DNA of 64,000 nt from positions 1 through 64,000 of the IMG/VR virus record IMGVR_UViG_2563367173_000002; one strand, 5' to 3'. This DNA comes from a virus (Duplodnaviria > Caudoviricetes). This document shows positions 15,816-64,000 of the stretch, in pieces. Position 1 is the stretch's first letter. Every line of letters starts with the position of its first letter. The translations under genes were made by a program, and so were the position numbers. The notes below the pieces were generated by a model. It ran no database searches. It was not told the origin of the DNA and saw only the letters and a list, made by a program, of their open reading frames with translations.

Positions 15816-15854
15816 AAGTTTCTCCTTTTTTATTTTCTTAAAATGAGCGTTTCG

Positions 15855-16208
15855 TGTGGTTTCAATCGACTTTCTGATCAAGTTATAACCAGACTACTTA
15901 GAAGTCTCACGTACCCATTTACTACATTTAATTAGATACTTATAATCCTCTTTTGAACACTTCACAGGAATAATCATAGTTTTATAAAAGTATCCATAAT
16001 CTAATCCTGGCAATGACACATCGTATATATTGGTTATAAGAAAATGCCTTTTATCTGGTTGTTCGAATTCAAAATATCTTTCAAATTCTTCTAATAATTC
16101 TACTTTTTTATTCTGTGCAGTTTCGCATATAATACAAAGTAGATTACATAAATCTTTATATGTATAAAGTTGTCCAATTACTATGTTTTCTGTTTTCATA
16201 TTTTTCAA
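15855..16208 (-). mobile_element. internally deleted tnpB-like element
   Basis: ORF ends YKTMIIPVKCSKEDYKYLIKCSKW (TnpB-like N-terminus), then jumps to a short tail ending GATTGAAACC. Confidence 0.45.
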
Positions 16209-16227
16209 TCCAATGTTCTGAATTTAA

Positions 16228-16524
16228 TCATTTTTTCTCCAGAAACTTAGCTAACATTTCATCATAATAATCAATTTTTTCTTTAATATGATCTACTATC
16301 ACATCCTCAAACTGCTTCATAGCATCTTCTATTGACTTTGCAAATTCTTCATCATGTTCTACATTCAATAAGTCTGATACATAAATATAATTCTCCGAAT
16401 CTTCTTTGTCTTGAATGAATTTGAGAATTATTTCATCATCATAGAATTGAGTAAAATGCAGTTCGTAGACATCATCATTTAACAACCAGTATCTATTTTC
16501 ATATACTCTTATTTTATTGCTCAT
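16228..16524 (-). CDS. hypothetical protein
   Basis: GAGG RBS, overlaps the upstream stop. Confidence 0.65.
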   Translation of the reverse strand: MSNKIRVYENRYWLLNDDVYELHFTQFYDDEIILKFIQDKEDSENYIYVSDLLNVEHDEEFAKSIEDAMKQFEDVIVDHIKEKIDYYDEMLAKFLEKK

Positions 16525-16879
16525 GTTTTACCTCTCCTGTCCTGATTGTATATAAAATGGAACTAAGCAACATTTCAATCATATCAAAGTCTCCGCTCAA
16601 AGCACTACCTGTTGTCTTAACCTCATATTTCCAATCTGATTGATTATCTGTTGGAACTACAGGTCTATCTATATACGTAACTGTACCTTTGGGAACTGTT
16701 ATACTTCTGTATTCATCATAGCAATCTTCCTTTAAGACTTTGAGCCAATCTTGGTATCCTTTATTACAGTTACCTTGTTTTACTTTTCCTCTATATACAG
16801 TAAAATATTTTTTATTTTCATATTTGATAGGAACAAATTTGTTCACTGCTAAGAGTACGTCATCTGTTATTCTATACAA
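16514..16879 (-). CDS. hypothetical protein
   Basis: Operon orientation; true start may be further upstream near the GGAGGTGG at about 16925. Confidence 0.6.
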   Translation of the reverse strand: MYRITDDVLLAVNKFVPIKYENKKYFTVYRGKVKQGNCNKGYQDWLKVLKEDCYDEYRSITVPKGTVTYIDRPVVPTDNQSDWKYEVKTTGSALSGDFDMIEMLLSSILYTIRTGEVKHEQ

Positions 16880-16933
16880 ATCCTGATGATCTGTTTCACC
16901 AAAAGTTCTAAATTTATGACCACCTCCATTGCC

Positions 16934-17716
16934 TTATTCCATATCAATTTTTATACTATTTGAAATTGAAGGAATATAAATATCATATATGTAATATTCA
17001 TCATACTTATCATGTCCTTTTTCACAGATATATGATTTATAATACCTATGAAAAATAATTCTTGGCTCTCCACTATCTCCTATCTCATAAATATTCACAT
17101 TGTTTTCATTGTATGGAATACTTCTTATAACCACTTTTTCATTATCAATAAACGCATAGTATAGATTGTAGTTTGTTTCTATTTTTCCATGAATCCATCC
17201 TGCACCAAGATGACTTTTCCCATATATTTCTCCAGAAGTTTCACGTCCATCTCCCATTGCATGTAAATAAATTGTATTTTGTTCCTCTTGATATGCTAAT
17301 GTATTAAATATCTTATCATCCTTATTTTCATGTATCATCGAAACTTCAATCATGCAAAAAACAACAAAACATACAATAAGTACTATTGTATGTGCAATAG
17401 GTATTCCTTCTTCAAAAACTCCAAATAATAAGCCTAAAAATACCGTAAAAACAATGTATACAATTGATAAAAACATAAATATTGTATATGATCTACATTC
17501 ATCCTTAAATGAATTATCAAAAATCCAAACTCCCAAGTTTTTCTTTATTATTATCAAATAAACAAATTCAATAATGTAATCAACAAACAATAAAACCGAA
17601 AACAATCCTATTTCTTGTTTTAAATTATCAAACCAATTAAGATTGAAATGGCTTATTAAAAAACAAATAAATTCAAAAATGATTGGCATGAATATAAAAA
17701 ACATCAATCTTCCCAT
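16934..17716 (-). CDS. multi-pass membrane protein
   Basis: Four hydrophobic segments in the N-terminal half; GAGG RBS. Confidence 0.7.
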   Translation of the reverse strand: MGRLMFFIFMPIIFEFICFLISHFNLNWFDNLKQEIGLFSVLLFVDYIIEFVYLIIIKKNLGVWIFDNSFKDECRSYTIFMFLSIVYIVFTVFLGLLFGVFEEGIPIAHTIVLIVCFVVFCMIEVSMIHENKDDKIFNTLAYQEEQNTIYLHAMGDGRETSGEIYGKSHLGAGWIHGKIETNYNLYYAFIDNEKVVIRSIPYNENNVNIYEIGDSGEPRIIFHRYYKSYICEKGHDKYDEYYIYDIYIPSISNSIKIDME

Positions 17717-17790
17717 TATCTACCTCTCTTTCTTTTTTTTTGCGTTAAAACCTATCTTCTATTGGGTTTTTAAAATCCATTTACCATAAA

Positions 17791-18999
17791 TCATGCTGCT
17801 TTCACAACATTTATAATGATAGGCGTTAGATCCACCTCTATTCCATATCCTGTATAGGAATCTGGAAATACCTTTCTCATAATTTGTAAACTTCCATTGA
17901 CATCTGCGTTAATTAACATATCTTCTGCTTGGAATAATCCTCTTGTGATCCTCCGCTTTTTATTATAATTCTCTTTTGTTGGTACTTCGTCATCCAGATA
18001 ACTTGTACCAGATGTATATGCTTCATTTACTTCTACATATTTAATTCCTGCATTTTCACATTTATATTTCAGTTGTTCTAATAACATTTCATAGGGAATA
18101 AATGTGAAGTTCTGCATATTCTTTTTCCCTTGTTTCCAAGTATCATTTTTGCCCACAACAAGAGTATCTATATTGTTTTCTTTGCACCACTTCATAACAA
18201 AAGCCGATGTGTTATGCATATAATTCTTTACTCTGCAAAATCTTTTGAATGTTAAAGAATCGAGACGTTTACTCCAATTCTTCTTATTTATTTTCATCAT
18301 TTCAGATTGTAATTTTGCTCTTTGCTTATTATATTGCTGATTGATGGACTTCAAAATCTTACCATTAACAATAATTGGTCTTTTACCGATATTGTTTGAC
18401 ATTGTTATAAGATTATCAACTCCTATATCAATAGCAGCTATGTGGTTGCTCTCAGATGGTTGATCTGGAACTTCTATTTCATATACTATTTCCATAACAT
18501 AGCAAGTTCCCTTTGGAATAAATCGTACTTGTATTGGTCTACCGAAACATCTACATTTCCAATCAAAATCATTTAATAGCCTATTTCTTATGTAAATACT
18601 AGATTTTTCGTAATCATAAACAAGCTGATTGTTTGGAATCATCCACGGAAATCTACCGTCTTTAGGGAGATACTTTGGGAATTTTGGCATACCTAAATAT
18701 TTATTAGGATGCTCTTTCCAATCTTCTATTGCTCTGAAATATGATTTCCAGTTTTTATCAAGCAGTCGTAACGTACAATTAGCTGGCTGACTAAAACATA
18801 ATTTATAATTTTCATGTGTTTTAAACTCAAAATTCATTTTGTTATATGATATATATTCTCCATTTAAAATAAACTCTTGACGAATCACATAATTTGCTTC
18901 ATTATATAAATTCTTGGCGCGAAAACACATTTCATCAATTATTTTGAATTTGGGATGATCTCTTTTAATTACTTTTTGTTCTGACCTTTGTACTTTCGT
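17791..18999 (-). mobile_element. tnpB: IS200/IS605-family TnpB RNA-guided nuclease, standalone (no tnpA)
   Basis: KNLYNEANY, RuvC AIDIGVDN, VNEAYTS, INADVNG; frame is open to an ACG at 18999 after a GAGGTGG RBS. Confidence 0.9.
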
Positions 19000-19056
19000 T
19001 CTATAACCACCTCACATCCCTAATTTGTATCTAGTATTATTTCTTACATTCCTCAC

Positions 19057-19691: not shown

Positions 19692-19693
19692 AA

Positions 19694-19960: not shown

Positions 19961-19969
19961 TTCATCACC

Positions 19970-20221: not shown

Positions 20222-20267
20222 TCTTACATTCTCCTACTCTTGAAAGTCCTATTTCATCGGCATATTT

Positions 20268-20315
20268 AGTCTATATATAGTGGTTCGCAAAATCAAAATC
20301 CACTATATATAGACA
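20268..20315. promoter_or_regulatory. tandem NrdR-box pair
   Basis: CTATATATAG at 20271 and 20303 (32-bp offset) matching the CwAtATaTwG core. Confidence 0.6.
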
Positions 20316-20319
20316 ATTT

Positions 20320-22614: not shown

Positions 22615-22627
22615 TATGTAACCTCAC

Positions 22628-25956: not shown

Positions 25957-27147
25957 TTACAGATTATCTAACCAAGATAAATCTTCATCTTTATCATCAT
26001 TGTTTTCAGATATACCACTACCAACACCGCTAAAAAAGTCATCTCCATTTTGCTGTGCTGCCAATGCGTCCAGATACTTTTTATATGGTTTATGTAAATT
26101 TGGAGAATATGCGCATAATGTTGAGAAATAATAGCTTTGTTTTTCAACTTGTTCTGGAGTATCAAAGAATATCATCTCGGCATTCTCTTTATCAATTAGT
26201 TTCTCAGTTTCATATTTCTCTTCTTTTTCTATAATCTCATCAATCGTATTCGTAATGTCTGTAACCCATCTATCAATAAGTTCCTGTGTTAGATCCACAT
26301 AAACAATACAATCATGAAATTTATATTTAGCCTGTACATCCTTTGGCAGACACTTTATATCATTTGTCTGTGCCAACATATCAAGATACTCTACAAGTTC
26401 ATTTTCGTATCCTAATTTCTTTAACCACATTTTTACACTTGTTTGTAGTTTGTTCCCTATTTCACATCTATCTATTTCTCTTGTAGTCCACTTACCATTT
26501 GCCTGTTCATAATCAACTTTTACATATTTTAAGAAGTCCCAACAAATCTTTATCTTTTCATATGGAACCCCCATCTGATGTAGACTGATTGCATAAACAA
26601 CCAACTGACCACATTCATTTAATGCTTTTTCTCCCTTATATATTGAAGATGTCTTCCAGTCCAAGATATTGAAACACCCATCATTATCTTTAAAGCATAC
26701 ATCTATGTATCCCTGAAATACGTTTTTACCAATCAGGACACTAATAAATCTTTCAATTTCAACTTTGTAAGGGATTGTATGGTGATTATTAAAGAAATGT
26801 TTTAGGTTCTTATAATATTTGTCAGCAATCTTCTTATTTTTTTCGCTATCGTTTCTATCAAATTTCAGTTCTGCAATACCGGCCGTCATCCACGCATCTT
26901 CAAATTCGCTATCCATATCTTCATACTTAATTTTCCCTAAGTATAGATTCTCCATAATTTCATGTGACATACCGCCTGTAACTGTGTAAATACAATCTTG
27001 TCTATCTTCATCAATACATCTAATATATTTTAAGAAATACTCATATGGGCTGTTATGATAAGAGTTAAAACGTGACCAACTCCACAGTCGATCCACTCCA
27101 TACTTTCTTTTTATTTGCTCTAATTCCTCTCCTGTTTTTCTTCCCAT
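25957..27147 (-). CDS. PD-(D/E)XK (RecB/Cas4-like) exonuclease
   Basis: WSWSR, GYID, ILDWKTS, QLVVY. Confidence 0.85.
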   Translation of the reverse strand: MGRKTGEELEQIKRKYGVDRLWSWSRFNSYHNSPYEYFLKYIRCIDEDRQDCIYTVTGGMSHEIMENLYLGKIKYEDMDSEFEDAWMTAGIAELKFDRNDSEKNKKIADKYYKNLKHFFNNHHTIPYKVEIERFISVLIGKNVFQGYIDVCFKDNDGCFNILDWKTSSIYKGEKALNECGQLVVYAISLHQMGVPYEKIKICWDFLKYVKVDYEQANGKWTTREIDRCEIGNKLQTSVKMWLKKLGYENELVEYLDMLAQTNDIKCLPKDVQAKYKFHDCIVYVDLTQELIDRWVTDITNTIDEIIEKEEKYETEKLIDKENAEMIFFDTPEQVEKQSYYFSTLCAYSPNLHKPYKKYLDALAAQQNGDDFFSGVGSGISENNDDKDEDLSWLDNL

Positions 27148-30265: not shown

Positions 30266-31378
30266 TTATGAAATCAGTGCTAATACCTTATTGGCATCGT
30301 CAATATCCGTAATCAGAGTCGGATTATCATATCCAAGTTCCTTTGACTTTGCAATAATAGGCTTGATCTTATCCATATTAGACTTGTTCTCTTTGATAAA
30401 ATCAGTAATCTTTGATACCACATCTTCAAGCTTCTTTGCTTCCTTCTTGTTCTGTTCTGCCTTGGCAATCTCTTTCAACTTTTCCGCTTCTTTTGCTTCC
30501 TGTTCTGCCTTTGTTTCATCAAAAGACTTGCCAGACTTAGACTGTTCTGCTTTGATTGCATCTGTGATGGCAATAACAAAATCATCTGCTGTCATAGGGA
30601 TTTCATCAACAATATCCGCAAATCTTGAACCACTATCCAATGCCATATTGTCATCTCTGAATTTAATCTTTCTTGTCTGTTCAGAAATCTTATTTACAGT
30701 AATATCTTTCTTGGTAACAACATTCTTCTTACCAGTCTTTTCAGTAATAATTGTTCTGTCATAATAAGCAAGACCTAAAAAGTGCATCTTCTTCTTTAAC
30801 AGATTGAAATATACTTTTTCAACATCAGAAGTTAATGTCTGATATGTTGTTCCTGTTGCAATATCGGTAAGTTCTCTGTTCTTAACATGACCAATAATAA
30901 TTACAGCAACGCCAATTCTACGCATCCTTGTAATAATATCAAACATGTATTCAAAAGCCTTACCCTGCCCCTTCTGAAAACCATTCCATGCTGCATCAAT
31001 ACTATCTGCTCTCTTATCAGGATGATCGACATTCCACTTTCTAATAGCTTCTGATTCAGCCAATTTAATCCATCCATCGTATGTATCAATAACAATAGCT
31101 TTCAAATTGCTATATTCTGTAGTTTTGTTGCTCTCGATATCGTCAATAATATCTTCTACCTTATCCCAATCGTCACAATCCTCATATACAATGCCGGAAA
31201 TTGCATCTGCACCAGCTTCACCATTCATCTCCAAGAAGATATAACCATCTTCACCAGCTAATTTCTCACAAACTTCTTTAATAATAGTGGTCTTACCAAT
31301 CTTAGGTTCCCCAAGCAAACAAATATTATATGATAATGGATCAATCTTTACTTCATTCTTTTTTCCGTATTTTCCCAA
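30266..31378 (-). CDS. AAA_24 / Sak4-like ATPase
   Basis: GEPKIGKTT, IVIDT, IGH; TTG start after AAGGAG. Confidence 0.85.
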   Translation of the reverse strand: MGKYGKKNEVKIDPLSYNICLLGEPKIGKTTIIKEVCEKLAGEDGYIFLEMNGEAGADAISGIVYEDCDDWDKVEDIIDDIESNKTTEYSNLKAIVIDTYDGWIKLAESEAIRKWNVDHPDKRADSIDAAWNGFQKGQGKAFEYMFDIITRMRRIGVAVIIIGHVKNRELTDIATGTTYQTLTSDVEKVYFNLLKKKMHFLGLAYYDRTIITEKTGKKNVVTKKDITVNKISEQTRKIKFRDDNMALDSGSRFADIVDEIPMTADDFVIAITDAIKAEQSKSGKSFDETKAEQEAKEAEKLKEIAKAEQNKKEAKKLEDVVSKITDFIKENKSNMDKIKPIIAKSKELGYDNPTLITDIDDANKVLALIS

Positions 31379-31451
31379 GTTATTATTCTCCTTATATTTT
31401 GAATTTGCGAGGTTGCATCCAAGCAACCTCAATATAAATAATCTTTATATT

Positions 31452-34391: not shown

Positions 34392-34393
34392 AA

Positions 34394-35102: not shown

Positions 35103-35159
35103 TCAAACCTCACCTCCTCCAAGTCCACACCATGAAATAAGAATTTCAACTGCCTATCA

Positions 35160-35207
35160 CATCAGTATATAATGTTTATTGTCTTTGCATTATACAATAT
35201 GTTGTAT
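35160..35207. promoter_or_regulatory. tandem NrdR-box pair (one box degenerate)
   Basis: CAGTATATAA at 35163 and CAATATGTTG at 35195 (32-bp offset). Confidence 0.4.
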
Positions 35208-35210
35208 ATT

Positions 35211-35606
35211 TTATCTGCTTATCACAACATATATTGTCCATGTAACAAAAATCTGTGCTATGTGTATCCACTGATCCTGAATTAGGTTAATTTTCATCAA
35301 ATTTGCTTTTGCATTATCCGTAATTGTGTGTATCAGCCAATTCATTGTAAATATTACAATAAATAATAGGATATTTAGCTGCAATCCACAAACCACAGAA
35401 TAAATAATGATTGGAATATGGATCATAAAAGTCCAACTAAATGCGTGTTCCACCAACGCCATTATGTAATCATTCTTATACAACGGACTCGGAGCATTTT
35501 GTTCCCACCACTTCTTTTGTTTTGCTGATGCAAGCCAGCCTTGTAAGTAATAGTCATCTACAATGTGACAAAATAGCATACATAAAATTAGAATTGTTTC
35601 TCTCAA
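35211..35606 (-). CDS. DUF3307-like membrane protein
   Basis: HIVDDYYLQ, H..D..K, DQWIH. Confidence 0.75.
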   Translation of the reverse strand: MRETILILCMLFCHIVDDYYLQGWLASAKQKKWWEQNAPSPLYKNDYIMALVEHAFSWTFMIHIPIIIYSVVCGLQLNILLFIVIFTMNWLIHTITDNAKANLMKINLIQDQWIHIAQIFVTWTIYVVISR

Positions 35607-35658
35607 TAATATCTTCTCCTTTTTTATATTTTTGTTCTTGAAAGAACGCTTTCAAGTA

Positions 35659-36450
35659 CTATTTATCAAACCAATAAACATTAGAATTTTCTTTTTTTTC
35701 CTTATGATAGTCGCCAATCCAATGGAACTGTCCATGATCTCTACACCAATCATGACATGCTGACAAAACGTTTGAAAAATTTATCAGATTGGGATTCGAT
35801 ATCAATAACTCCAAATCCATATTTCTAATGGAATCTATTAAGTCTCTCTTGTATACTTCTTCATATGGGATTTTATCGATTATCAAAGTCAAATTATCTT
35901 TATCAAAACTTACTTCTCCGCATGCGAAATAATGCTTTTCTTCATTTACTCCGTCATGGTAACAAGAATATGTCCTATTTTTTAGTTTTTTAATTCTTCC
36001 CACACACATTTTTTCTATAAAATCTACTGCTGGATCAAAAAACTTGCTTTTATCTAATGTATATTTAACTGTATATAATCCGTCTTCTCTTATTTCAAGA
36101 TACTTTGTTCCAGAATACATTTGAATAGGTATTGGATTCTCTTTTACAAGTCCTATCTTCTTTGCATAGGATAGAAGATTTTCATCTTCATCGTGTACTC
36201 CAAATGGAATTCCACAAATAATAGAAAAGGCAGTTCTCGCATCAAGCCAATTACTTTTCATATATAAACTTCCATCTTCTCTAACTCCTACATTATCAGC
36301 TTCACCTTTCTCATAGATTTCTTTCACCTCATCAAGATTAAAATAAAAATCAGATTTACAATCATACCATCCAATTTCAATCCACTGATCTGTCCATCCA
36401 CCCATATAATCAGTCATTACATGTGTATTATCTATAAAATATTTTTTCAT
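35659..36450 (-). CDS. hypothetical protein
   Basis: AAGGAG RBS. Confidence 0.7.
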   Translation of the reverse strand: MKKYFIDNTHVMTDYMGGWTDQWIEIGWYDCKSDFYFNLDEVKEIYEKGEADNVGVREDGSLYMKSNWLDARTAFSIICGIPFGVHDEDENLLSYAKKIGLVKENPIPIQMYSGTKYLEIREDGLYTVKYTLDKSKFFDPAVDFIEKMCVGRIKKLKNRTYSCYHDGVNEEKHYFACGEVSFDKDNLTLIIDKIPYEEVYKRDLIDSIRNMDLELLISNPNLINFSNVLSACHDWCRDHGQFHWIGDYHKEKKENSNVYWFDK

Positions 36451-36489
36451 TTATCTCCTTTATGCCAAATGAAATTTCGGATTCATCGG

Positions 36490-37299: not shown

Positions 37300-37337
37300 T
37301 CAAAAATCACCTCCCATCAAGTCTTGAAACCAAGATT

Positions 37338-37979
37338 CTATCCGATTATGTGTCGAAATTCTTCCATCCTTTTATCTTTAAATAAATAGTTCCCCTCAAT
37401 AATACTAATAATAGATATACATACATTGTTTTGTTCCCAACTTTTATCCCATGAAATATTATCATTAACTCTATAACTCCAATACAACGATATATTCTTT
37501 GGTAAAATTTTTTCAAAAATCATTCCATCCATATCCATATCATCTAAGAAATATTCTTTATAAGGTTTAATTTCTTTGATGAAAAAATCAAAGTACACTT
37601 CAGGCGTAATATTTTTTCCATTATATTGTTTATTAAGTTTTAATAAGAGTGATTTAATTGTTTCTAATTCCCATTTATATAATGTTTCAATTTCTTTATC
37701 ATAGACATCGGCATTTATACAAATTGGATATGATCTTAACAAAGGAAGTTTTTGTATTATTCTATTTTTTTCCAGGTTATTACTGTAAATTTTTAATAAA
37801 TGTGTAACAAAACAACTTTCTATATCTACTCCTTTTTTCTCTAATCTCTTCAGTATACTCTCCTTTGATACTATTTTGTTATTGGTCAAAAATGTCAAAC
37901 AAATATTTTCCAACCATTCAATATAACCATCTTTTTTATCTGTATCTATTTTTACATTTTTCATATTAAATTTCTCCAA
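37338..37979 (-). CDS. hypothetical protein (AT-rich)
   Basis: Single ORF between two palindrome copies. Confidence 0.6.
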   Translation of the reverse strand: MEKFNMKNVKIDTDKKDGYIEWLENICLTFLTNNKIVSKESILKRLEKKGVDIESCFVTHLLKIYSNNLEKNRIIQKLPLLRSYPICINADVYDKEIETLYKWELETIKSLLLKLNKQYNGKNITPEVYFDFFIKEIKPYKEYFLDDMDMDGMIFEKILPKNISLYWSYRVNDNISWDKSWEQNNVCISIISIIEGNYLFKDKRMEEFRHIIG

Positions 37980-38002
37980 TTGAAATTAACCTTTTCAATG
38001 GC

Positions 38003-38893
38003 TTATTCATCTTTAAATTCTGTATCCTCAGTAACCATTGCACTATCTATAATCTGAACATAAGTGTTTTCATCAGGAGTAATGACAACGGGTTCCTTAG
38101 TTAATCCCCAAAATGTAAGTTGATTTCCCTCTGCTTTTATTACACTTCCGTCCCATTCCAGTATCTTTGTACTAAGTTTTACCTTTCCAGGAAGTAACGT
38201 AACCACCTTTGCCTCTTTGTCTTTATAATCTATATCCTTAATTCTATCTTCTATTTCTGGATATATCATTTTTACTTTATCAAATATATCTGGCATATAT
38301 CGTTTTAGCTGAGAACAAAATTTAGGAATTTCTTCTCTTTGATAAGATGTAATCTCACCGCCCATCATTGCTCTTGGTCTATATTTTATAAGTTCTACAA
38401 TGAATTCTGGTGTAAAATTTTCTTTCCTGATAATATCTCCATCACCCTTAAAGAAATTTTTTTCTCTAATGGAATTTGAGTAATTGATCAAATGTGGTAA
38501 CGGAAGAAACACATAATCACCAATATAACATAAAAATTTTAAATCTCCTTTGGAATATGCAACATCTCCATACTCATCTTTTCTCTTTCGTATTAAGTCA
38601 CCACATCTTCTTGCAGCTTTTGTATATCCTTCTTCTCTTTTTATTTGTCCATAAGAACAAGAGTGAGCATATAATCCGTTTAACATTGCACACTTATTTC
38701 TTTTGCAAGCATCACAATTTTCTGAATTATTGCAAGTGTAAACCGTGACCCTCTCTCTATCTCTTCTACCAGCTTTAAATAAACTGTTTCGTGGATCATA
38801 ATATGTAAAATTTATTGGAATGTAATTACTAATATCTTTCACCTCTTCTATAATAGAATTTTGCTTAATTTTTATTTTTATATCATTGACCAA
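38003..38893 (-). CDS. hypothetical protein (start may be ATT at 38833)
   Basis: Cys-containing N-terminus; GAGGTG precedes the ATT. Confidence 0.7.
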   Translation of the reverse strand: MVNDIKIKIKQNSIIEEVKDISNYIPINFTYYDPRNSLFKAGRRDRERVTVYTCNNSENCDACKRNKCAMLNGLYAHSCSYGQIKREEGYTKAARRCGDLIRKRKDEYGDVAYSKGDLKFLCYIGDYVFLPLPHLINYSNSIREKNFFKGDGDIIRKENFTPEFIVELIKYRPRAMMGGEITSYQREEIPKFCSQLKRYMPDIFDKVKMIYPEIEDRIKDIDYKDKEAKVVTLLPGKVKLSTKILEWDGSVIKAEGNQLTFWGLTKEPVVITPDENTYVQIIDSAMVTEDTEFKDE

Positions 38894-38914
38894 TACACAT
38901 ATGCGTGCTATAAT
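38886..38914 (+). promoter_or_regulatory. sigma-A promoter
   Basis: TTGACC-17bp-TATAAT with an extended TG. Confidence 0.75.
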
Positions 38915-38950
38915 GTATAATTAATATTTCAATTCAAGGAGGTATATTGA

Positions 38951-39127
38951 ATGAAAAACGAATTAAGTTCCGTATTAAATAATGGTATCTTATCAAATCC
39001 TGGAGATGAACTCTACGCACGTATTACCCCCACTGGTCGCAAAGTAATAAAGGTTAAAAAGAATGGGAAAAAAGCTAGTGCGACACAATACAAAAGTGGG
39101 AAAACCGTATATACATTTAGTTCGTAA
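38951..39127 (+). CDS. 58-aa basic protein, moron-like (not in ORF track)
   Basis: AAGGAGG RBS; MKNELSSVLNNGILSNPGDELYARITPTGRKVIKVKKNGKKASATQYKSGKTVYTFSS*. Confidence 0.75.
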   Translation: MKNELSSVLNNGILSNPGDELYARITPTGRKVIKVKKNGKKASATQYKSGKTVYTFSS

Positions 39128-39147
39128 TTAACAGAATATCTTTATTG

Positions 39148-39182
39148 TTCCTCTAAGCAGTTACGGCTTAGAGGAATTTTTT
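39148..39182 (+). terminator. intrinsic terminator
   Basis: ttcctctaagc-agttacg-gcttagaggaa followed by a T run. Confidence 0.8.
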
Positions 39183-39210
39183 ATCCTTTGAAACTCTGGA
39201 TTTATTGTCC

Positions 39211-42003: not shown

Positions 42004-42055
42004 ATTTATTCTCCTTTTTCACCCGATGAAAGCAAAATTTTAAGACTAATATTTT

Positions 42056-44379: not shown

Positions 44380-44603
44380 CTCCTGTAATATACTAACCTA
44401 CAATATTTTTGATAATCTTCCCTTGTATATTCATATTTATTTGCCATATCCATACACACTTCATTTTCCCATGGATTACAGTCCTCATCTTCTAATGCTG
44501 AAAACCAGCTTCCTATTAAAAATTCAATATCATGCAAAATTTTTTGTTCAGTCATTCTATTACCTTTGATTTTTCTCATGAAAGAGTTGTTTTCTGGCAT
44601 CAA
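44364..44603 (-). CDS. hypothetical protein
   Basis: Coupled ORF. Confidence 0.5.
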   Translation of the reverse strand: MMPENNSFMRKIKGNRMTEQKILHDIEFLIGSWFSALEDEDCNPWENEVCMDMANKYEYTREDYQKYCRLVYYRRWIIF

Positions 44604-45453: not shown

Positions 45454-45485
45454 ATTTTTTTACTCCTTTGAAATGAAAATTCTAT

Positions 45486-46253: not shown

Positions 46254-46275
46254 CTCCTGCCATGAAACCGATGAT

Positions 46276-47763
46276 TCAAGTCTTATTTTTCAATCCCATT
46301 TCAAGATATAATTCATCAACCGCATTACCCTTTCGCTTTAAACAGTTATAAATCTTTTCATCAATGGTGTTTTTGCCTTGTAAAATAATATAAGTACATT
46401 TATTATCCTGACCTATTCTATGTATTCTATCTTGACTCTGGCGATATTCCTCATAACTAAAATTCAAAGAATAATAAATGTTATAGGTACAATTTACAAA
46501 TGTTAAACCTTTTCCAAGCAACTTAGGGTGTGTAAATAACAATTTAATCTCATTATTTTTAAACTGACGAATTATCGAATCTCTATCTTTCGTCTGTGAT
46601 GTAAGTGCTACACCATTATATTTCTCTGCAAGTCTATTGATTTCATGCTGAAACTGACACCATATTATTATAGGTTTATCTCCTATTTCTTCAAATGCAG
46701 CATCTAATAGTTTATCTTTATTTGTATCAAAATCTATAATAGAACCATCTTTATTGATAACAAATCCACTTACTATTTCCCTTAATTTCATCAGCTTTGC
46801 AGTAAATTCAAACTTAGACCACTCATTTATGTTGTCCTGTATATCACGAATCATATCATCATAATATTTCTTCTGTTCTTTACCTAGTTCAAATCGCTTT
46901 ACTTCAAATACTTTTGGAGGAAGGTCAACACAATCCTCTTTCTTTAAAAACACAGATTTTTCTCTAAGTCTGTTAAAATACGCTTCTTTATCTTCTTCTG
47001 TTTGATACCATCTATGTGGATTTGCCATATCTTGATGAAAATATCTTGCTTGAAAACCGTAAAAATTATTACCAAACACTTCTGGATCAACAAATTTCAT
47101 CTGTGGGAAAATTTCTGAATTATGATTGGGTGTTGGTGTGCCTGATAATGCAAACCTATGAGGAATAATATCTATCATTTGTAGTAATTCATTTGTAATT
47201 TGACTCGTCATATTCTTCATTACTTGACTTTCATCAATTATCATACAATCAAAATTCATTTTCAAAATATCATTTTTGAGAATCTTAAAACTCTCATAAT
47301 TCATAACATAAATATCAGAATTACTATTTAAAAATGTCATTCGTTCTTTCTTACTACTTCCCCAACAATTCACAATGTTTAATTTAGGGTAAAATTCATT
47401 ACAATCGTCAATCCATGCTGTTTCGATTACAGATAAAGGACACAAAATTAAAGTCTTTTCATAATGCTTTGCAAGTTCCAAACCCATAATTGTCTTTCCT
47501 GTGCCTGTATCGGCAAAAATGCCATAACAGCCTTCATTTAAAGCAATGTTTACGATTTTCTTTTGATATTCTCTAAGATGAGGAGAAAGTTCAAATTGAA
47601 CAATCTCCTTTTCTTTTACTTCAATTTCTGAATCTATAAGACCATACTCTTGTAACTTCTTAACTGCTGAGTCTGGAAATTCCCATTTACCATTTTTAAA
47701 CTTTCTTCCCTCAATGGTTCTTATGTATGGTATCTTCTCTACTGGAATCTCTAAAGACACCAT
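46276..47763 (-). CDS. SNF2-family helicase
   Basis: DTGTGKT, IIDESQ, LSGTP, GKGLT, QSQDRIHRIGQ. Confidence 0.9.
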   Translation of the reverse strand: MVSLEIPVEKIPYIRTIEGRKFKNGKWEFPDSAVKKLQEYGLIDSEIEVKEKEIVQFELSPHLREYQKKIVNIALNEGCYGIFADTGTGKTIMGLELAKHYEKTLILCPLSVIETAWIDDCNEFYPKLNIVNCWGSSKKERMTFLNSNSDIYVMNYESFKILKNDILKMNFDCMIIDESQVMKNMTSQITNELLQMIDIIPHRFALSGTPTPNHNSEIFPQMKFVDPEVFGNNFYGFQARYFHQDMANPHRWYQTEEDKEAYFNRLREKSVFLKKEDCVDLPPKVFEVKRFELGKEQKKYYDDMIRDIQDNINEWSKFEFTAKLMKLREIVSGFVINKDGSIIDFDTNKDKLLDAAFEEIGDKPIIIWCQFQHEINRLAEKYNGVALTSQTKDRDSIIRQFKNNEIKLLFTHPKLLGKGLTFVNCTYNIYYSLNFSYEEYRQSQDRIHRIGQDNKCTYIILQGKNTIDEKIYNCLKRKGNAVDELYLEMGLKNKT

Positions 47764-48962: not shown

Positions 48963-50090
48963 TTAATAATCCAATGAATCGAAATTTTCATTTCCATATT
49001 TACTTACTTCTATTTTCTTTTCGTTCATCTCTTTGCAAAATTCTTTGTATTTTTTTGTATACTCATAACTATCGCCAAAGATGTTATTCACGGCTATAAA
49101 TAATTTTGGTTCATATTCCTTTGTTATTTTCAATTCATACTCAAAATCTCTCCCATATGGGCAACAACAGCATCCAGTACGTTTTAATCCATATTCCGTG
49201 TAACATAAACTATGTGTAATCTCATAATGTTTATCATATTCTTCTTTATCAGAATTCTTATACCAGAATAAAGGTCTGTAATTGTCATAAGTATTCTTCT
49301 TGCTTTTACCATTTTCATCAAAGCAACTTTTATACGCCGAAGATCTGGCACCACCTTCTGATTTTCTAATCCCAACTATATTTAAATCATATTCAAAATC
49401 AGATAATAATTTATGGGCTACATCCTTTTTAGCATACTTACAACATGTATTAGAAATTTTAAATTCTGGAGGATTTTCTATAATAAATTCTTTCAACCAC
49501 TTATTATATGAAATGTTAAATTTACTACCTTTCTTATACTTATTGCACCACCACAATAAAGCTGAAACACATCCTCTGTAATATTTCCCTTTATATTCCT
49601 TTACACCGTTCTTAAATTTCCCATTCTTAAAAGCATTCTCATTTGATATTTCAATACAGTACTTTTTAATTAATAAGTCAAAATCTTCACTTTCCCATTT
49701 GAAATTATATTTTTGGAGTCTTTGCATGAATTCACTGACTTGTTTTGAAAGAAATGGTTGTCCATATTGTTTACATGTTAATGGAATAGATTTTATAGCT
49801 TTGTATGGCATAATATTAATACCATATTTTTCTTCTAAATATTTCAAATGATTTTTTGTTGCTTGATATTCTAAACCAGTATCAAACCACACATATTCAA
49901 TTTTATTATCTTTATCACATTTCGTACAAATATCTAACATCACATCACTATCAGATCCTCCAGATATTGAACATACTATTTTTTCATATTTACTATTATT
50001 AATCCTTGACCATGCTCTTATTAAGTTGTCTCCAATAGTTTGATTTTGAGGACAGTTCTCTAACAGTCCTGTTAAAGTTTTTTCACCCAA
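48963..50090 (-). CDS. PAPS-reductase-family protein
   Basis: SISGGSDS PP-loop, DTGLEY, CCKYAKK, GIRKSE, RTGCCCCP. Confidence 0.85.
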   Translation of the reverse strand: MGEKTLTGLLENCPQNQTIGDNLIRAWSRINNSKYEKIVCSISGGSDSDVMLDICTKCDKDNKIEYVWFDTGLEYQATKNHLKYLEEKYGINIMPYKAIKSIPLTCKQYGQPFLSKQVSEFMQRLQKYNFKWESEDFDLLIKKYCIEISNENAFKNGKFKNGVKEYKGKYYRGCVSALLWWCNKYKKGSKFNISYNKWLKEFIIENPPEFKISNTCCKYAKKDVAHKLLSDFEYDLNIVGIRKSEGGARSSAYKSCFDENGKSKKNTYDNYRPLFWYKNSDKEEYDKHYEITHSLCYTEYGLKRTGCCCCPYGRDFEYELKITKEYEPKLFIAVNNIFGDSYEYTKKYKEFCKEMNEKKIEVSKYGNENFDSLDY

Positions 50091-52423: not shown

Positions 52424-52456
52424 AATATTCCTCCTTAAATTTTGCTTTGAAACAGA

Positions 52457-53179
52457 TTATTTATTGTCTAGCCAATCTTTATATTGTCGAATAAGTTCTG
52501 TATACAATTCTTCGTCATTCATGTTCTCCATATCTTTAACTGAAATGAATCCAGTATTATCACACTTTCTACCTGGCATGTTATCTAAAGAACGTAGATA
52601 AGTAAATGATTCATTTCCAATTCCAACAAATTGAACAAACATATTATATTCAGATAATTCTCTTATAATTTTATCTGTTTCACTCTGATCTGAATTCGCT
52701 CCATCTGTAATAAAAATTATAAATGCAGGTATATCATTTAAACTAGTTTTGTTATAATATTTGACTATATCTCTCAATACTGGCGCATATTCTGTTCCTC
52801 CCATACACATGCCAGATTTGACCATAATATTTTTAACATAATCTTCATAATTATTAGTAGTTACTGATTTTAGTTTCTTTTTTTCGTTAGAAAACAACCA
52901 TGATTCTAATTCACCATTATCATCAAACCGTAAAGCAATTGGAAGCAGTCTTGTAATAGTTCTTTGTATAGCCCCACTACAAAATAGTTTATCCATACTT
53001 CCAGAATAATCCATAGCAAGTGCTACTTTCGCGATATGCTTGGATAAATTTACTTTACCTTCTTTTGATAAATTCACCAAAACCTTATCTAAATTATCTT
53101 TTGATTTTGACAAATTGATTATTACACTCTTTTGAGCATTGTCAACTTCCTTGTTGAAAAACTTTCCTAATAATCCCAT
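52457..53179 (-). CDS. vWA-domain protein (TerF-vWA-like)
   Basis: MIDAS DYSGSM, FDDNG, GGT.YAP, FITDG, QFVGIG. Confidence 0.85.
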   Translation of the reverse strand: MGLLGKFFNKEVDNAQKSVIINLSKSKDNLDKVLVNLSKEGKVNLSKHIAKVALAMDYSGSMDKLFCSGAIQRTITRLLPIALRFDDNGELESWLFSNEKKKLKSVTTNNYEDYVKNIMVKSGMCMGGTEYAPVLRDIVKYYNKTSLNDIPAFIIFITDGANSDQSETDKIIRELSEYNMFVQFVGIGNESFTYLRSLDNMPGRKCDNTGFISVKDMENMNDEELYTELIRQYKDWLDNK

Positions 53180-53297
53180 AATAAGAATCCTTTCTGATGT
53201 ATTTATTTTATAATATCTATAATAATAAAGTGCCAAATTTAATAAGGTCTGACACAATGACCTCTAAAAATAGCTTTAAAATCTCGATTTCATGTCT

Positions 53298-53345
53298 ATA
53301 CCATATATAGCAATCGCTTGTATAGTCAAGCACCATATATGGTAT
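53298..53345. promoter_or_regulatory. tandem NrdR-box pair
   Basis: CCATATATAG at 53301 and CCATATATGG at 53333 (32-bp offset). Confidence 0.55.
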
Positions 53346-55139: not shown

Positions 55140-55149
55140 TGATCCTCCC

Positions 55150-55863
55150 TTAATCCTCTCTTGGATATTCATGAACAATCATATCCATATTTACTAGCCC
55201 TGTTTGCTTCATATTGTCCCAATAGCAATATTCATCACCGTCTTGAATGACGACATATTTCTTATTTATAAGATATTCTTCAAGAGAAATACCTTCATGC
55301 TCTAAAAATCCACTTAGAATATCTTCATCAACATATCCTGTGCATGGTATGTCATAATGCCACCAGCCATTTGAAGATTTCCAATACTCAATTTCAAAAC
55401 CCCAATCCTTTTCTTTCTGTGATAAATATTCTTTTAGTTCATCTTCTGTCTTACCATACTTCTGATAATAGTCATCGTTTTTATGTTCTTCATCATTTTT
55501 ATCTACAATACTATCACTGTCCATTGGCAGTTTGATCTTTTTAAGACCTGGTATATATTTCAATGCAAGTGCAACGAGTTCTTTATAAACATCATCATTA
55601 TAGTCATGAACCAACGAAGCACACGCATACAACCATTTATCTGTAAATGTTCCCAAAGCCCTAAATGGACTCCTACCAAATTCCAAATCGTGATCCCAAG
55701 GCTCCCAAACACAAGATTCCTCGCCTGTATCTTCATCTTTACATAAATATATTCCGTCTAAAATTTCTTCTGGAGTATATTTATCATCTCTCTTCATAAC
55801 TGTTAAACTATGCATAGAACTCGAATTTGTTTCAAAAACATTTCTTCTAATCTGTCTCTTCAT
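55150..55863 (-). CDS. TNSSS-motif protein 3
   Basis: MKRQIRRNVFETNSSSMHSL; AAGGAG RBS. Confidence 0.8.
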   Translation of the reverse strand: MKRQIRRNVFETNSSSMHSLTVMKRDDKYTPEEILDGIYLCKDEDTGEESCVWEPWDHDLEFGRSPFRALGTFTDKWLYACASLVHDYNDDVYKELVALALKYIPGLKKIKLPMDSDSIVDKNDEEHKNDDYYQKYGKTEDELKEYLSQKEKDWGFEIEYWKSSNGWWHYDIPCTGYVDEDILSGFLEHEGISLEEYLINKKYVVIQDGDEYCYWDNMKQTGLVNMDMIVHEYPRED

Positions 55864-56752: not shown

Positions 56753-56767
56753 ATTATCAAACCCTCC

Positions 56768-60100: not shown

Positions 60101-60117
60101 TCTCTCAATCCTCTCTT

Positions 60118-60477: not shown

Positions 60478-60517
60478 AACTTCTTTTTCTCCTCCTATGA
60501 AATGCAAGTTTTAAGAC

Positions 60518-60856: not shown

Positions 60857-60876
60857 TCGTCTATATCCTCTACAAT

Positions 60877-61362: not shown

Positions 61363-61384
61363 CCCCTTTCTTGAAACGTGGGTT

Positions 61385-63184
61385 TTAAGACTTTTTCACT
61401 ACAACCAACGAATCCTTCTGAACTGTTGTAATTGCATTTGATAATTCATCATTTCTTACTTCTATCTGTTGCTCGGTTTTACCCTCTGAATTATATCTAC
61501 CACGCATAGCAGCACCAACAGCATATAAATAACTAAAACCACCTGCATTACCTACTGGCTGTGACAACAGAGCCATTGCAATCGCATCTGCATCATACAC
61601 CCTATTTCCTTGTCTAAATTGCTTACCAAAATTTATTTCTCCAATCCCACCAACTAATATCGGTTTATGATTACCACAAACAGAATCTAGTCCGCTTGTG
61701 GGATTGATAAAATTTATCATTTTCTCATCTATGCAAATATATGTATCATCATACTGAGCCTTATACAAATGCTCAATTAATAGTGAAATTGCTGTTGTTA
61801 CAATTGAATTTCCTGATTGTTTATACCCTTGGGTATCAGACATTCCAACTGCTTTACATCTCTCAAAATCTTCATCATCAAATCCCATAAGTCTATGAGC
61901 TTCTTTAGGTGTAAGCTTTCTTACAATTCTAAGATTATCTCTTTCAACTTTTGGCTCAGTATTACCACCACCACAAGTATGCATCGCAGGAGCAATACCA
62001 TCTTCACTATATATTCCCCGTGACTGTTCATGCATCCTTTGGAATTTCTCACTGCACAAATCAGCAATATGTATCGGCTCATTTGTTGTGTCCAATATCT
62101 GTTTAGGTTGCTTATAATCAGTAGCAAGTAATGCGTCCATAATTGAATCTTTTTGATATACTAAATCTCTTTGCCCGATAGTCCTAAATTCTGGTTTTGT
62201 TGTATCAACAATATTTTTTTCAAATTTCGGATCGGTAATTTGTAGTCTTCTTTGCACTTCATCCGACAAAAAATATTTATCTAAAACTTCGTCATCCGTT
62301 TCTAATAAATCTTTTAATCGAATTCCATTATCAAATGGTTGAGGGAATTTAAACTGTTCTGTATCAATTTCTTTAAGAATGGAAACGCAGAAAATTCTAT
62401 TTCGGTTCTGTGGTATGCCTGTGTTTTTTGCATTGATTGTTTGAAAATATGAGTTATATCCCAAGTTGTCCAATCTATCAATCCAATCATTAAAACTATC
62501 AATATATTTTTTAGACACAAGAGCATCTACATTTTCCATAAGTAAATATTTTGGCAAATTATTGTTTTCATTTGCCTTTACAAGCAGTCTTTCTACTTCA
62601 TACAACAACCCTGAACGAGTTGACTTAATATTATTACTTCCGCAACAAGGACATTTATATCTTGTATCAACATTTAATTTTGATGGGTCATATTCCATAC
62701 CACAATCTTGACAAGTCCACTTTAACCCTTCCTGTTTTCCTGCAATCGATAAATCAGTACACGGCGTTGAATATGTAAGCATATCACAATCCGACAGTTC
62801 TTTAATCTGCATTATATCTCCCAAATTATGTGAAATATGATCAGCCAACCAGTATTTTTCTATGCCTTTCGTTTTGTCTTTCTTTTTTGATAACTTTTCC
62901 CAATCATATGGTTCATCTTTTTTAAAATCAAATCCTAATCTTTTCTTAGATAACTCATTCACCATTTCATCCTTGGAAGGATAATTACCATATTCATTAA
63001 TCATTTCATTAGTTAATCCACAATGAATAGCAGCATAACTAACAATAACCTCTTTATCTAAATCTGCTGTTGCGACAACCTCTGCGTCAAACAGATTTGT
63101 ATTATTAATTCCTTTTATCTGTGCACCAATTCCACTACACAACTCAATAACTTTTAAACTAAATCTTTTATTATTACTTTCCAA
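61385..63184 (-). CDS. dcm: C5 DNA cytosine methyltransferase
   Basis: ELCSGIG, STPCTDLS, MENV, PQNRNR, RLMGF, KQSGNS; Zn-ribbon insert CQDC..CPCC. Confidence 0.92.
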   Translation of the reverse strand: MESNNKRFSLKVIELCSGIGAQIKGINNTNLFDAEVVATADLDKEVIVSYAAIHCGLTNEMINEYGNYPSKDEMVNELSKKRLGFDFKKDEPYDWEKLSKKKDKTKGIEKYWLADHISHNLGDIMQIKELSDCDMLTYSTPCTDLSIAGKQEGLKWTCQDCGMEYDPSKLNVDTRYKCPCCGSNNIKSTRSGLLYEVERLLVKANENNNLPKYLLMENVDALVSKKYIDSFNDWIDRLDNLGYNSYFQTINAKNTGIPQNRNRIFCVSILKEIDTEQFKFPQPFDNGIRLKDLLETDDEVLDKYFLSDEVQRRLQITDPKFEKNIVDTTKPEFRTIGQRDLVYQKDSIMDALLATDYKQPKQILDTTNEPIHIADLCSEKFQRMHEQSRGIYSEDGIAPAMHTCGGGNTEPKVERDNLRIVRKLTPKEAHRLMGFDDEDFERCKAVGMSDTQGYKQSGNSIVTTAISLLIEHLYKAQYDDTYICIDEKMINFINPTSGLDSVCGNHKPILVGGIGEINFGKQFRQGNRVYDADAIAMALLSQPVGNAGGFSYLYAVGAAMRGRYNSEGKTEQQIEVRNDELSNAITTVQKDSLVVVKKS

Positions 63185-63340
63185 ATGCCTTATCTACAAG
63201 GCGTTGCAACGCTAATTTATCCGGAATTACTTGTTATATCCTTTCTCTAATTTGTTATTTGTGAATCTTTCGTGGGTTCATGACTCCCTATGAAAGATTT
63301 AATTCATCGGATAAAATATCCGTTTATATATCAAAAATTC

Positions 63341-63528
63341 TGATATAATGGCTGAAAACCACAATCACTATCCTATTGTTCTACACTTTAGGAATACTTT
63401 TCTTGGAATTACCGACTTGATTAAGTCATTAAGAATTGATATACTTAGATTTGTCAAGACGGTTATCCGTTTTGTGTTGGATAAGAACTCTGCTCACTCG
63501 CCAAAGTTACCAGAGTTCTTATTTTATT
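63341..63528 (+). ncRNA. candidate antisense-oriented sRNA
   Basis: TGaTATAAT extended -10 at 63341; hairpin aagaactctg..cagagttctt with CTCGCCAAAGT in the loop. Confidence 0.4.
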
Positions 63529-63886
63529 CTTCTACATAATCAAAATCATGTCCATATAAAATATTCTGAATCGCATTTTTATCACGTTCCATAATTGCAC
63601 AACAAACATTTTTTCTGATTGCATCATCCTTTGAATTTGGTAAATTATCATATTCAGAATCAATTTTCTTTTCAAGAAATTCGACAAATTCTTTTAGTCT
63701 AGCAGTCATATCTTTATTAGATGACTTATTGTACTCTTTCTGACCATGTTCAAATGTCCTAAGTTCATCTTTTCCTATCCACTTCACCTAGGCTCCGCAA
63801 TCGTCACAATACAGACCCGTATTATTGCCTTTTATCTCTGTATGTAATGATATACTTCCACATTTTTTACAACAATTTTGATACAC
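63524..63886 (-). pseudogene. Zn-ribbon protein interrupted by an in-frame TAG
   Basis: AAGGAG..GTG at 63886: CKKCG..YCDDCGA*VKW; TAG at 63788-63790 where Trp (TGG) is expected. Confidence 0.6.
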
Positions 63887-64000
63887 AAATTCACACTCCT
63901 TCCAATTACAATGTTTTATTCATTGGCTAAATATTGTCTTTAATATACTTCACAATATCATCAATGATTTCTTCATCAAATTCTTCAAAATCATCAAGAG

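Follow-up and report, generated by a model that had tools for sequence, protein, structure and literature searches.

A conserved intergenic site at the boundaries of phage mosaicism is an already known phenomenon. According to the accessible parts of the reports on T4-type phages, a promoter early stem-loop (PeSL) is made up of an early promoter of the sigma-70-like kind and a terminator stem-loop, and mini-circles have been shown (PMC2839356, PMC4122927). In Cluster A mycobacteriophages, the available text describes stoperators, asymmetric sites of 13-16 bp present in more than 20 copies and bound by a monomeric repressor (PMC9283540). In SPbeta, the SPbeta repeated element (SPBRE) is presented, in the portion of the source at hand, as a 15-bp element found at about 10 intergenic sites in promoter regions and bound by the master repressor MrpR to keep lysogeny; MrpR has a tyrosine-recombinase fold but has lost the catalytic residues (PMC10516654). 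The present work deals with the palindrome TGAAA-N6-TTTCA in the Caudoviricetes record IMGVR_UViG_2563367173_000002 (G000, 110,561 bp), whose first 64 kb, the whole stretch of DNA that was analysed, are called the window. An earlier note on the window had described about 18 copies of this palindrome that punctuate accessory genes like cassette boundaries, and had proposed an integron-like cassette-shuffling system or, alternatively, a genome-wide repressor or RNA-processing site. We favour, with a probability of roughly 40%, the following reading: the palindrome would be a regulatory site that doubles as a recombination linker, in the manner of PeSLs or stoperators. What is new is the site itself, the phage clade that carries it, its tie to a sigma-like/DUF262 protein, and the presence of another motif in a relative devoid of the palindrome.

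As far as the available descriptions go, the palindrome resembles PeSLs in that it is a short conserved intergenic repeat in the variable regions of a large phage, located at the boundaries of insertions, deletions and replacements, and a point of exchange between unrelated sequences (PMC2839356, PMC4122927). Unlike the PeSLs described there, it is a bare palindrome of 16-18 nt with no promoter consensus and a weak hairpin. With stoperators, as presented in the accessible sections, it shares a copy number above 20, a location mostly in short intergenic spaces, a temperate phage as the carrier and a site sequence that differs between related clades (PMC9283540). The orientation of stoperators follows transcription in that account; in G000, asymmetric copies of our motif are oriented with the genes in 11 cases and against them in 2, the copies of the G001 group are palindromes, and the gene maps of G002 and G003 are rough. 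The motif differs from stoperators in being palindromic, near-perfectly so in one subgroup, in having no identified repressor and in belonging to phages of Firmicutes-type gut hosts. The available portion of that source makes no mention of stoperators as recombination linkers (PMC9283540). As for SPBRE, it is likewise a repeated short intergenic element of a large Firmicutes phage with a DnaE-type polymerase, and the fold of MrpR echoes the remark in the earlier note that inverted arms around a short spacer typify the core sites of tyrosine recombinases. However, from what its description offers, SPBRE occupies promoter regions at about 10 sites, whereas the palindrome lies in gaps between stop codons and ribosome-binding sites (RBSs) in at least 30 copies, and the recombinase of G000 appears catalytic, unlike MrpR. 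The motif string was not found in the searched literature, with supplements outside the search.

The palindrome stands out clearly from the background. When every 5-mer palindrome with a spacer of 3-9 nt was counted in an unbiased scan, TGAAA-N6-TTTCA came first in four genomes, with 8 exact copies observed and 1.03 expected in G000, 19 and 1.37 in its relative G001, 7 and 1.23 in G002, and 8 and 1.60 in G003. In the window, there are 4 exact copies against 0.51 expected and 28 copies with at most 1 mismatch against 12.7 expected, and none of 100 shuffles reached either number. Allowing 2 mismatches brings the count to 127 against 126.8 expected, and the more degenerate copies with 2 or 3 mismatches reported previously are therefore indistinguishable from chance by their letters alone. 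Nevertheless, 5 of the 8 weak copies (15839, 17746, 37981, 39189 and 63907) have independent support, because homology with relatives or with metagenome contigs breaks exactly there. Placement is equally distinctive. Over the whole G000 record, 7 of the 8 exact copies are non-coding, and copies with at most 1 mismatch are 6.7 times denser in non-coding than in coding DNA (1.42 and 0.21 per kb), so that the intergenic enrichment that the earlier note had proposed to examine is indeed present. The 16.9 kb of non-coding DNA hold 21 such copies, compared with 2.95 +/- 1.65 in 200 composition-matched simulations, whose maximum was 8.

Most of the initial description of the copies holds, and some of it needs correction. 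Each of the 18 listed coordinates carries the sequence described, and the spacers are distinct in 25 of 25 copies. The copies then graded perfect, near-perfect or weak comprise 3 exact ones, 7 with 1 mismatch, 6 with 2 and 2 with 3, and it is the last two classes that fall at chance level by sequence. The replication core and the 53.3-60.5 kb operon are free of copies, as had been stated; a matrix scan there gave low-scoring in-gene matches or none. Most copies do lie between the upstream stop codon and the next RBS; in 8, the motif is 29-217 nt past the stop. Between successive copies, 1-6 genes were counted; the earlier note had given 1-2 gene units. The range of 15839-63922 was too narrow: a matrix built from 14 window copies identified 10 more gene-strand copies scoring at least 12 at 64-106 kb of the record, each just upstream of an RBS, and an exact copy is present at 9713. 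The motif is thus genome-wide on this arm, beyond 15.8-63.9 kb, with about 30 gene-strand copies in 110.6 kb. The copies in the window are as follows, with mismatches counted over the 10 arm positions; X12 and X13 stand for independent metagenomes, from which contigs were taken, and the G numbers for related records.

9713..9728, minus strand: exact copy outside the range first described; matrix score 13.0
15839..15854, minus strand: weak copy, 2 mismatches; homology with G010 stops past the right arm
17746..17761, minus strand: weak copy, 3 mismatches; homology with G006 and G007 stops at 17745
20241..20256, minus strand: exact copy that closes the replication module on its downstream side; 8 relatives alike as far as the right arm, with 5 or more unrelated sequences beyond it
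35133..35148, minus strand: exact copy; loose contig end in X12 at 35130
35639..35654, minus strand: exact copy at the downstream edge of the cassette with the 263-aa open reading frame (ORF); joint 35171->35639 in X12 and X13
35641..36486, minus strand: 846-bp cassette with the 263-aa ORF and a motif copy at each end; 99.8% identity to G006, neighbouring segments 91-94%
36470..36485, minus strand: 1 mismatch; one spacer in three different contexts (G000, G006, G009)
37325..37340, minus strand: 2 mismatches; matrix score 18.9; first gene-strand triplet is the upstream stop
37981..37997, minus strand: 7-nt spacer, 2 mismatches if read as N6; joint (X13) and loose end (X12) at 37995
39189..39204, minus strand: 2 mismatches; matrix score 17.2; homology with G008 begins at 39185; in X13, 37996-39187 are replaced by 1799 other letters
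42027..42042, minus strand: 1 mismatch; matrix score 16.8
44579..44594, minus strand: 2 mismatches, a new copy right after a TGA stop; matrix score 15.7
45469..45484, minus strand: 2 mismatches; matrix score 14.5
46263..46278, minus strand: 1 mismatch, overlaps the upstream stop; matrix score 20.3; 493 extra letters in X13 at 46254-46265
48975..48990, minus strand: 1 mismatch, a new copy; matrix score 11.5; homology with G008 begins at 48974
52448..52463, minus strand: 2 mismatches; matrix score 14.1
53277..53292, minus strand: 1 mismatch, downstream end of the 60.5-53.3 kb operon; found by the matrix scan
60498..60513, minus strand: 1 mismatch; upstream of the 60.5-53.3 kb operon, 20 nt from its first gene; matrix score 17.9
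61372..61387, minus strand: 1 mismatch, overlaps the stop of a methyltransferase gene; matrix score 20.4
63291..63306, minus strand: 1 mismatch; matrix score 15.8
63907..63922, minus strand: weak copy, 3 mismatches; homology with G008 stops at 63924

Read on the gene strand, the consensus is W-T-R-A-A-W, six free bases, and TTTCA-W. In G000, the right arm is near-invariant and the left arm variable (TGAAA, TGAAT, TAGAA, TAAAT or TAAAA). Seven copies begin with the upstream stop codon itself; in many others, the stop is 1-13 nt upstream of the motif, and the RBS often starts 1-4 nt downstream. The 5-6-5 layout sets the centres of the half-sites 11 bp apart, i.e. one helical turn. In the group of G001, whose members share 83% DnaE identity with G000, most copies are perfect palindromes that abut AAGGAG, with 12-16 exact copies per record and 0 for the control. 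In each of three phage groups, conservation is limited to 16-18 nt, of which 5-6 bp per arm are informative. The spacers act as position tags, the order of which is kept across genomes.

How gene gains and losses relate to the motif was determined by aligning relatives. As the DNA of G001 and G002 is too diverged from that of G000 for breakpoint mapping, closer relatives were used instead, and the whole G000 record was compared with five of them. Of the 67 distinct breakpoint clusters obtained, 7 are within 6 nt of a motif copy, where 0.3-0.5 would be expected from uniform placement. Homology breaks right after TTTCA(W) at 15839, 17746, 35639, 36470 (with G009), 39189 and 48975, and at the left arm at 36486 (with G006) and 63924. 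Downstream of the helicase gene, eight close relatives have in common a hairpin followed by the 20241 copy as far as the right arm, and then continue into at least five unrelated sequences. Independent metagenome contigs show further events at motif edges, namely the replacement of 37996-39187, the 493-letter insertion at 46254-46265, the skip from 35171 to 35639, and the loose ends at 35130 and 37995; other contig joints are off the motif (40672/40856, 50052/50718 and 50879/51511). We then turned to six genome arms of the 83% group, in which 21 of 101 breakpoint clusters are in motif zones (1.22 expected). Among the 65 clusters in junction zones, 19 are at motif junctions, which represent 19 of the 147 junctions, a 2.3-fold excess. 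Two other reference arms of this group gave similar figures. Breaks of gain, loss and replacement thus coincide with the motif, often to the base. It had been asked whether they would fall in the spacer; they are found at the motif, but the signed break distances in the 83% group peak at both of its outer edges, with hardly any break within the spacer.

Comparisons of copies that have the same spacer in the 83% group reveal re-assortment on both sides of the motif. Both flanks are conserved in 169 pairs, only the upstream flank in 38, only the downstream flank in 39, and neither in 39. The same comparison in the G000 group, with 2 mismatches allowed, is noisy, its 25 'neither' pairs including chance matches. 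Inspection of five tags showed two to three unrelated upstream sequences and two to three unrelated downstream sequences in mixed combinations, such as A-X, A-Y, C-Y and C-Z around a single 17-nt copy. All that these combinations have in common is 17-25 nt of motif, sometimes with the RBS; arm variants go with the outer flanks, and the spacer stays. As read from the aligned sequences, this is direct evidence that exchange took place within the motif or at its edges.

The distribution of the motif follows phage phylogeny. We collected relatives by their DnaE polymerases and compared 41 records. The motif is abundant in all records at 98%, 83% and about 75% DnaE identity, with 6-19 exact copies each and 0-1 for reversed-pattern controls. 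The 21 more distant records are at background, 19 of them with 0-3 exact copies; for G004 and G005, a looser pattern gave counts on a par with the control. A sigma-like protein is present in 20 of the 20 records with at least 6 exact palindromes and in 0 of the 21 others. In a five-genome proteome comparison, the only proteins present in G000-G003 and missing from G004 were NrdD with its activase, and this sigma-like protein with its DUF262 partner; three further proteins found in G001-G003 but not in G004 matched no DNA-binding family. In G000, the proteome comparison and Pfam place the protein here:

75813-77990 of the G000 record (L001:11813-13990), minus strand, outside the window: gene of the fused sigma-like/DUF262 protein, 725 aa

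The two parts are adjacent in G001-G003, being split into proteins of 213 and 498 aa in G001 (87199-89343), and they are fused in G000 and G025. Sigma70_r2 scores above the Pfam cut-off in the G001 protein, and GmrSD_N scores below it in both. Sequence matches in the PDB are weak (sigma F, FliA and SigA). The model of the whole protein has a mean predicted local distance difference test (pLDDT) score of 65.8, with the DUF262 part below 50. The 48 top fold matches listed for this model are all sigma factors, over about 240 columns and with a weak best E-value of 0.016; a PDE6C chain ranks 49th. The fused form, with a helical C-terminal domain, has more than 670 relatives without functional annotation, a few of which are labelled Lachnospiraceae by source.

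The relative G004, which has neither the palindrome nor the sigma-like protein, harbours a motif of its own, ATG[AT]TTTAATCA, in 22 copies where 0.5 would be expected, and this motif occurs 0-1 times in G000-G003. It is intergenic, with an RBS-like sequence within 30 nt in 12 of the 22 copies and within 0-3 nt in 7, and it sometimes precedes a promoter of the TTGACA-N17-TATAGT type. Examples (L097-L105) are found at these positions of its record:

102307: copy of the G004 motif
106625: copy of the G004 motif
108741: copy of the G004 motif
133074: copy of the G004 motif

As this different motif occupies the same places, punctuation by a clade-specific short motif may be wider in this phage group.

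How might these observations fit together? We infer protein binding, the identity of the binder, the control of transcription and the homologous rather than site-specific nature of the exchange. It is tempting to speculate that the palindrome is the site of a clade-specific phage DNA-binding protein acting as a dimer, for which the sigma-like/DUF262 protein (record 75813-77990) is the candidate. Once bound, the site would punctuate transcription and gene units on the non-structural arm, like an operator or a stoperator. The spacing of the half-sites by one turn, the palindromy in one subgroup, the lack of covariation between arms, the direction of the copies in G000, the clade specificity and the substitute motif of G004 together suggest that a protein binds the site and that the boundaries of units are marked in this way. 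In function, the nearest precedents are stoperators and SPBRE/MrpR; in evolution, the PeSLs of T4-type phages. Since the 16-18-nt site is all that the otherwise unrelated alternatives at one position share, related phages would resolve their recombination inside it or at its edges, and the motif would therefore appear as a cassette boundary. The likely catalysts are the phage's own Sak4-like annealing protein and its exonuclease, whose genes are in the window:

30266..31432, minus strand: gene of the Sak4-like single-strand annealing protein (AAA_24; phrog_124, E 1.9e-24)
25957..27147, minus strand: gene of a PD-(D/E)XK exonuclease, partner of the annealing protein (phrog_1218)

The Sak4-like protein is thus a candidate catalyst of short-homology exchange. 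Proteins of the Sak4 class anneal single strands and have been linked to phage mosaicism, as stated in the accessible parts of two reports (PMC5928155, PMC5499656).

Several points weigh against this proposal. An identity of 17-25 nt is short for homologous exchange. Most breakpoint clusters are away from the motif (60 of 67 for G000 and 80 of 101 in the 83% group), and the 2.3-fold excess may come in part from motif junctions lying in variable regions. As the space between stop and RBS in such a compact genome is little more than the motif itself, breaks at gene boundaries would reach motif edges even if the motif had no role. The co-occurrence of motif and sigma-like protein is confounded by phylogeny, because all 20 motif-bearing records form one DnaE clade (at least 74% identity), and any clade-specific gene would fit equally well. 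A sigma factor is not expected to select a palindrome. The orientation bias seen in G000 could not be confirmed in G002 and G003, whose gene maps are too rough. Lastly, no repressor candidate turned up, although no search was aimed at repressor homologues. The genome-wide repressor site put forward at the outset as an alternative, taken as a protein-binding site, fits the data better than the integron. An exact palindrome at 55611 of G001, considered as a lysogeny-switch operator, was rejected since it is inside a 630-aa ORF.

Alternatively, the motif might be a promoter or start-site element read by the host RNA polymerase with the phage sigma-like protein, each copy starting a short-leader transcript for the next 1-6 genes and the linker role being secondary, as for the promoters of T4-type PeSLs. 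We consider this unlikely, albeit well worth weighing. It would account for the strict co-occurrence of the sigma-like protein with the motif (20/20 and 0/21), for the Sigma70_r2 match in the G001 homologue and the sigma-factor fold matches, for the 11 copies oriented with the genes as opposed to 2, for the right arm being more conserved than the left, and for the 60.5-53.3 kb operon having a copy 20 nt ahead of its first gene and none inside. The sigma-like gene and the DNA immediately ahead of it contain no matrix match (score of at least 8), as might be expected of a regulatory cascade. However, no copy directly precedes the replication operon, the copies of the G001 group are near-perfect palindromes, and nothing beyond the 16-18 nt is conserved, be it at -35 or elsewhere. 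The RBS follows the motif by 1-4 nt in many copies, so that the start site would have to sit inside the right arm. In addition, the G004 analogue is upstream of ordinary TTGACA...TATAGT-type promoters in several cases.

No -35/-10 conservation was detected around the motif. A scan of 33-53 kb with promoter and terminator consensus sequences yielded 106 promoter-like matches, with 119 in shuffled sequence, and 3 terminator-like ones, with 4.6 in shuffled sequence. The k-mers enriched upstream of start codons are mainly RBS words, with TTTCAAG (G0) and ATGAAA (G1) low in the lists. In the metatranscriptome run X8, the region is represented by contigs that span many motif copies; these contigs carry no start, end or strand information.

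A role in site-specific recombination has to be considered next, given the initial proposal. The integron-like shuffling system is not supported: the arrays are collinear, 80-90% of breakpoints are elsewhere, and no flank is found beside another spacer. Collinearity applies to five genomes, the sixth of the six arms lacking the starting tag. The 1-6 genes between successive tags, and gene gain or loss at junctions that have no motif, also depart from the cassette model, and there were 0 upstream and 0 downstream cases of a flank beside a copy with a different spacer. Integron attC sites are about 57-141 bp long, with paired inner and outer repeats. Their likeness to the motif resides in an inverted-repeat site after the gene and in many breaks at the 3' edge of the site; unlike them, the motif is 16 bp long, has 1-6 genes per interval and shows breaks at both edges. 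Furthermore, no cassette occurs at a second position or beside another site, and no recombinase is specific to the motif-bearing clade.

The core sites of tyrosine recombinases, of the lox, FRT or dif type, have arms of about 9-13 bp. The motif has the inverted arms around a spacer of the right size (5-6-5), but only 5-6 bp per arm, and its left arm is degenerate in G000. A tyrosine recombinase that the earlier note had suggested looking for is present at 87221-88261 of the record, 23 kb beyond the window. By eye, it shows GRRISD, HSMRRG and NHSS...NKY, and it looks catalytically intact when set against the signature of the family; it has no sequence match in the PDB. This intact look neither supports nor excludes a role at the motif. 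Phage_integrase genes are present in 40 of the 41 related records, and only one of the 21 records that lack the motif is without them.

These features could nonetheless be combined into a natural form of recombinase-mediated cassette exchange, in which the motif is a core-type site and the 6-bp spacers must match, so that some 30 sites swap only the same positions of co-resident phages. The inverted arms, the distinct spacers (25/25), re-assortment only around same-spacer copies with 0 cases for other spacers, arm variants that travel with the outer flanks while the spacer stays, and the recombinase with its usual catalytic residues are all in line with it. Yet homologous exchange over 17-25 nt of identity would produce each of these patterns just as well, that between equal spacers included. 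The short arms, the degenerate left arm and directional copies of G000, the occurrence of this recombinase family whether or not the motif is present, the many breakpoints elsewhere, and the G004 analogue, which is built differently and has no hairpin stem but occupies the same places, make this scenario improbable in our view. No circle-type back-joints were seen in the metagenome contigs, from which rare forms drop out. We are just as sceptical of a variant in which the palindromes, about 30 in number, are heterospecific recombination targets, their arms recognised by a tyrosine recombinase or by the sigma-like/DUF262 protein as a site-specific DNA-binding nickase and their position-specific 6-bp spacers limiting exchange to the equivalent place of a co-resident relative, and by which accessory genes would be swapped without the phage deleting its own genome.

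Could the motif act as RNA? A small hairpin between stop and RBS might be cut or bound and thereby process or stabilise the polycistronic transcript, or couple translation. The placement of the motif and its palindromic nature speak for it, many copies in the G001 group having a perfect stem of 5 bp. As a hairpin, however, the motif has a mean energy of -1.34 kcal/mol, and for 9 of 25 copies no structure is predicted at all. The arm pair 2-15 is of the Watson-Crick type in 11 of 25 copies, with no compensating changes, and the G004 analogue is unable to form a hairpin. No T run follows the motif at the listed copies. The RNA-processing role envisaged earlier is thus weak, and we hold it to be quite improbable.

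Next to one motif copy, two CTATATATAG boxes form a hairpin with a 15-bp stem at 20269..20314 on the minus strand. Read along the genes, this hairpin precedes the 20241 copy by 12 nt, and its stem shows compensatory changes in the relatives L007 and L009. The 53277 copy is preceded by two CYATATATGG boxes, which are CTATATATAG-like (region 53290-53345). Paired boxes of this type, about 22 nt apart, adjoin the motif copies where the replication module and the 60.5-53.3 kb operon end. G001 has an 85-nt repeat with two boxes behind each of two motif copies, of which one lies upstream of the sigma-like gene; the box sites are at 86640 (L074), 112608/112641 (L075) and 128701 (L076).

An operator for a dimeric host regulator of the CRP/FNR type, which would tie the phage accessory genes to host physiology, has no better prospects than the RNA element: the 5-6-5 geometry does resemble operators of this family, but the presence of the motif goes by phage clade and tracks a phage gene, and the motif-less G004 uses another motif. 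That the motif is a functionless frozen remnant, where breaks occur only as gene-boundary breaks, is very hard to believe, for although chance accounts for the number of copies when 2 mismatches are allowed, and most breakpoints are elsewhere, copies that are exact or have 1 mismatch greatly exceed the chance number and cluster in non-coding DNA, arms are kept while spacers differ in 25 of 25 copies, and the motif is maintained across groups at 75-83% DnaE identity with unrelated flanking genes.

Returning to the phage itself, the G000 record is 63% complete according to CheckV, has a G+C content of 31% and carries nearly all its genes on the minus strand. It encodes a DnaE-type polymerase, RecD2-like and DnaB-like helicases, NrdD and an NAD ligase. 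SPbeta also encodes a DnaE-type polymerase. Relatives of G000 reach 150-165 kb, and some have a provirus flag. No virion genes were found among the large ORFs scanned in the remaining 46 kb of the record, and a megablast search with 20 kb of the window gave no match in the phage collection. The relatives G001-G004 display extreme mosaicism, and their virion modules seemingly differ between subgroups: only 9 of the 217 predicted proteins of G001 have BLASTP matches in all of G000, G002, G003 and G004, and 25 match G004 only.

The non-structural arm of G000 is rich in other mobile elements. Outside the window, the record harbours a reverse transcriptase (phrog_1423), a LAGLIDADG/HNH homing endonuclease, two transposases and the tyrosine recombinase (66126-67163, 72216-73292 and 87221-94662). 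The 652-aa radical-SAM activase that adjoins NrdD (window 3878-5836) has a match to His-Me finger homing endonucleases in its middle, which suggests an inserted endonuclease or an intein-like element. The ORF at 46276-47763, whose end lies within the 46263 copy, has matches among phage DNA helicase families (phrog_62, E 2.7e-110), and the von Willebrand-type gene reported at first is therefore probably a neighbouring ORF. On the plus strand, against the direction of the genes, a terminator-like hairpin with a 12-bp stem and a T run (39147-39177) and a sigma-70-type promoter matching 11 of 12 positions, with a TG extension (38886-38914), lie within a 290-nt gap of the cassette that is replaced in one metagenome contig.

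Short linkers at module boundaries have long been proposed as a route to phage mosaicism, and clear cases are few. Here, one site of 16-18 nt, in about 30 copies per genome, recurs throughout a large clade of gut phages; at many positions, it is all that the alternative genes share, and re-assortment can be seen on either side of it. Its distribution also gives a handle on the uncharacterised sigma-like/DUF262 family with its more than 670 relatives. If a binder is confirmed, the palindrome would be a counterpart, in Firmicutes phages, of stoperators or PeSLs, and it would provide a simple marker for cassette boundaries and for immunity or regulatory groups in metagenomic phage genomes.

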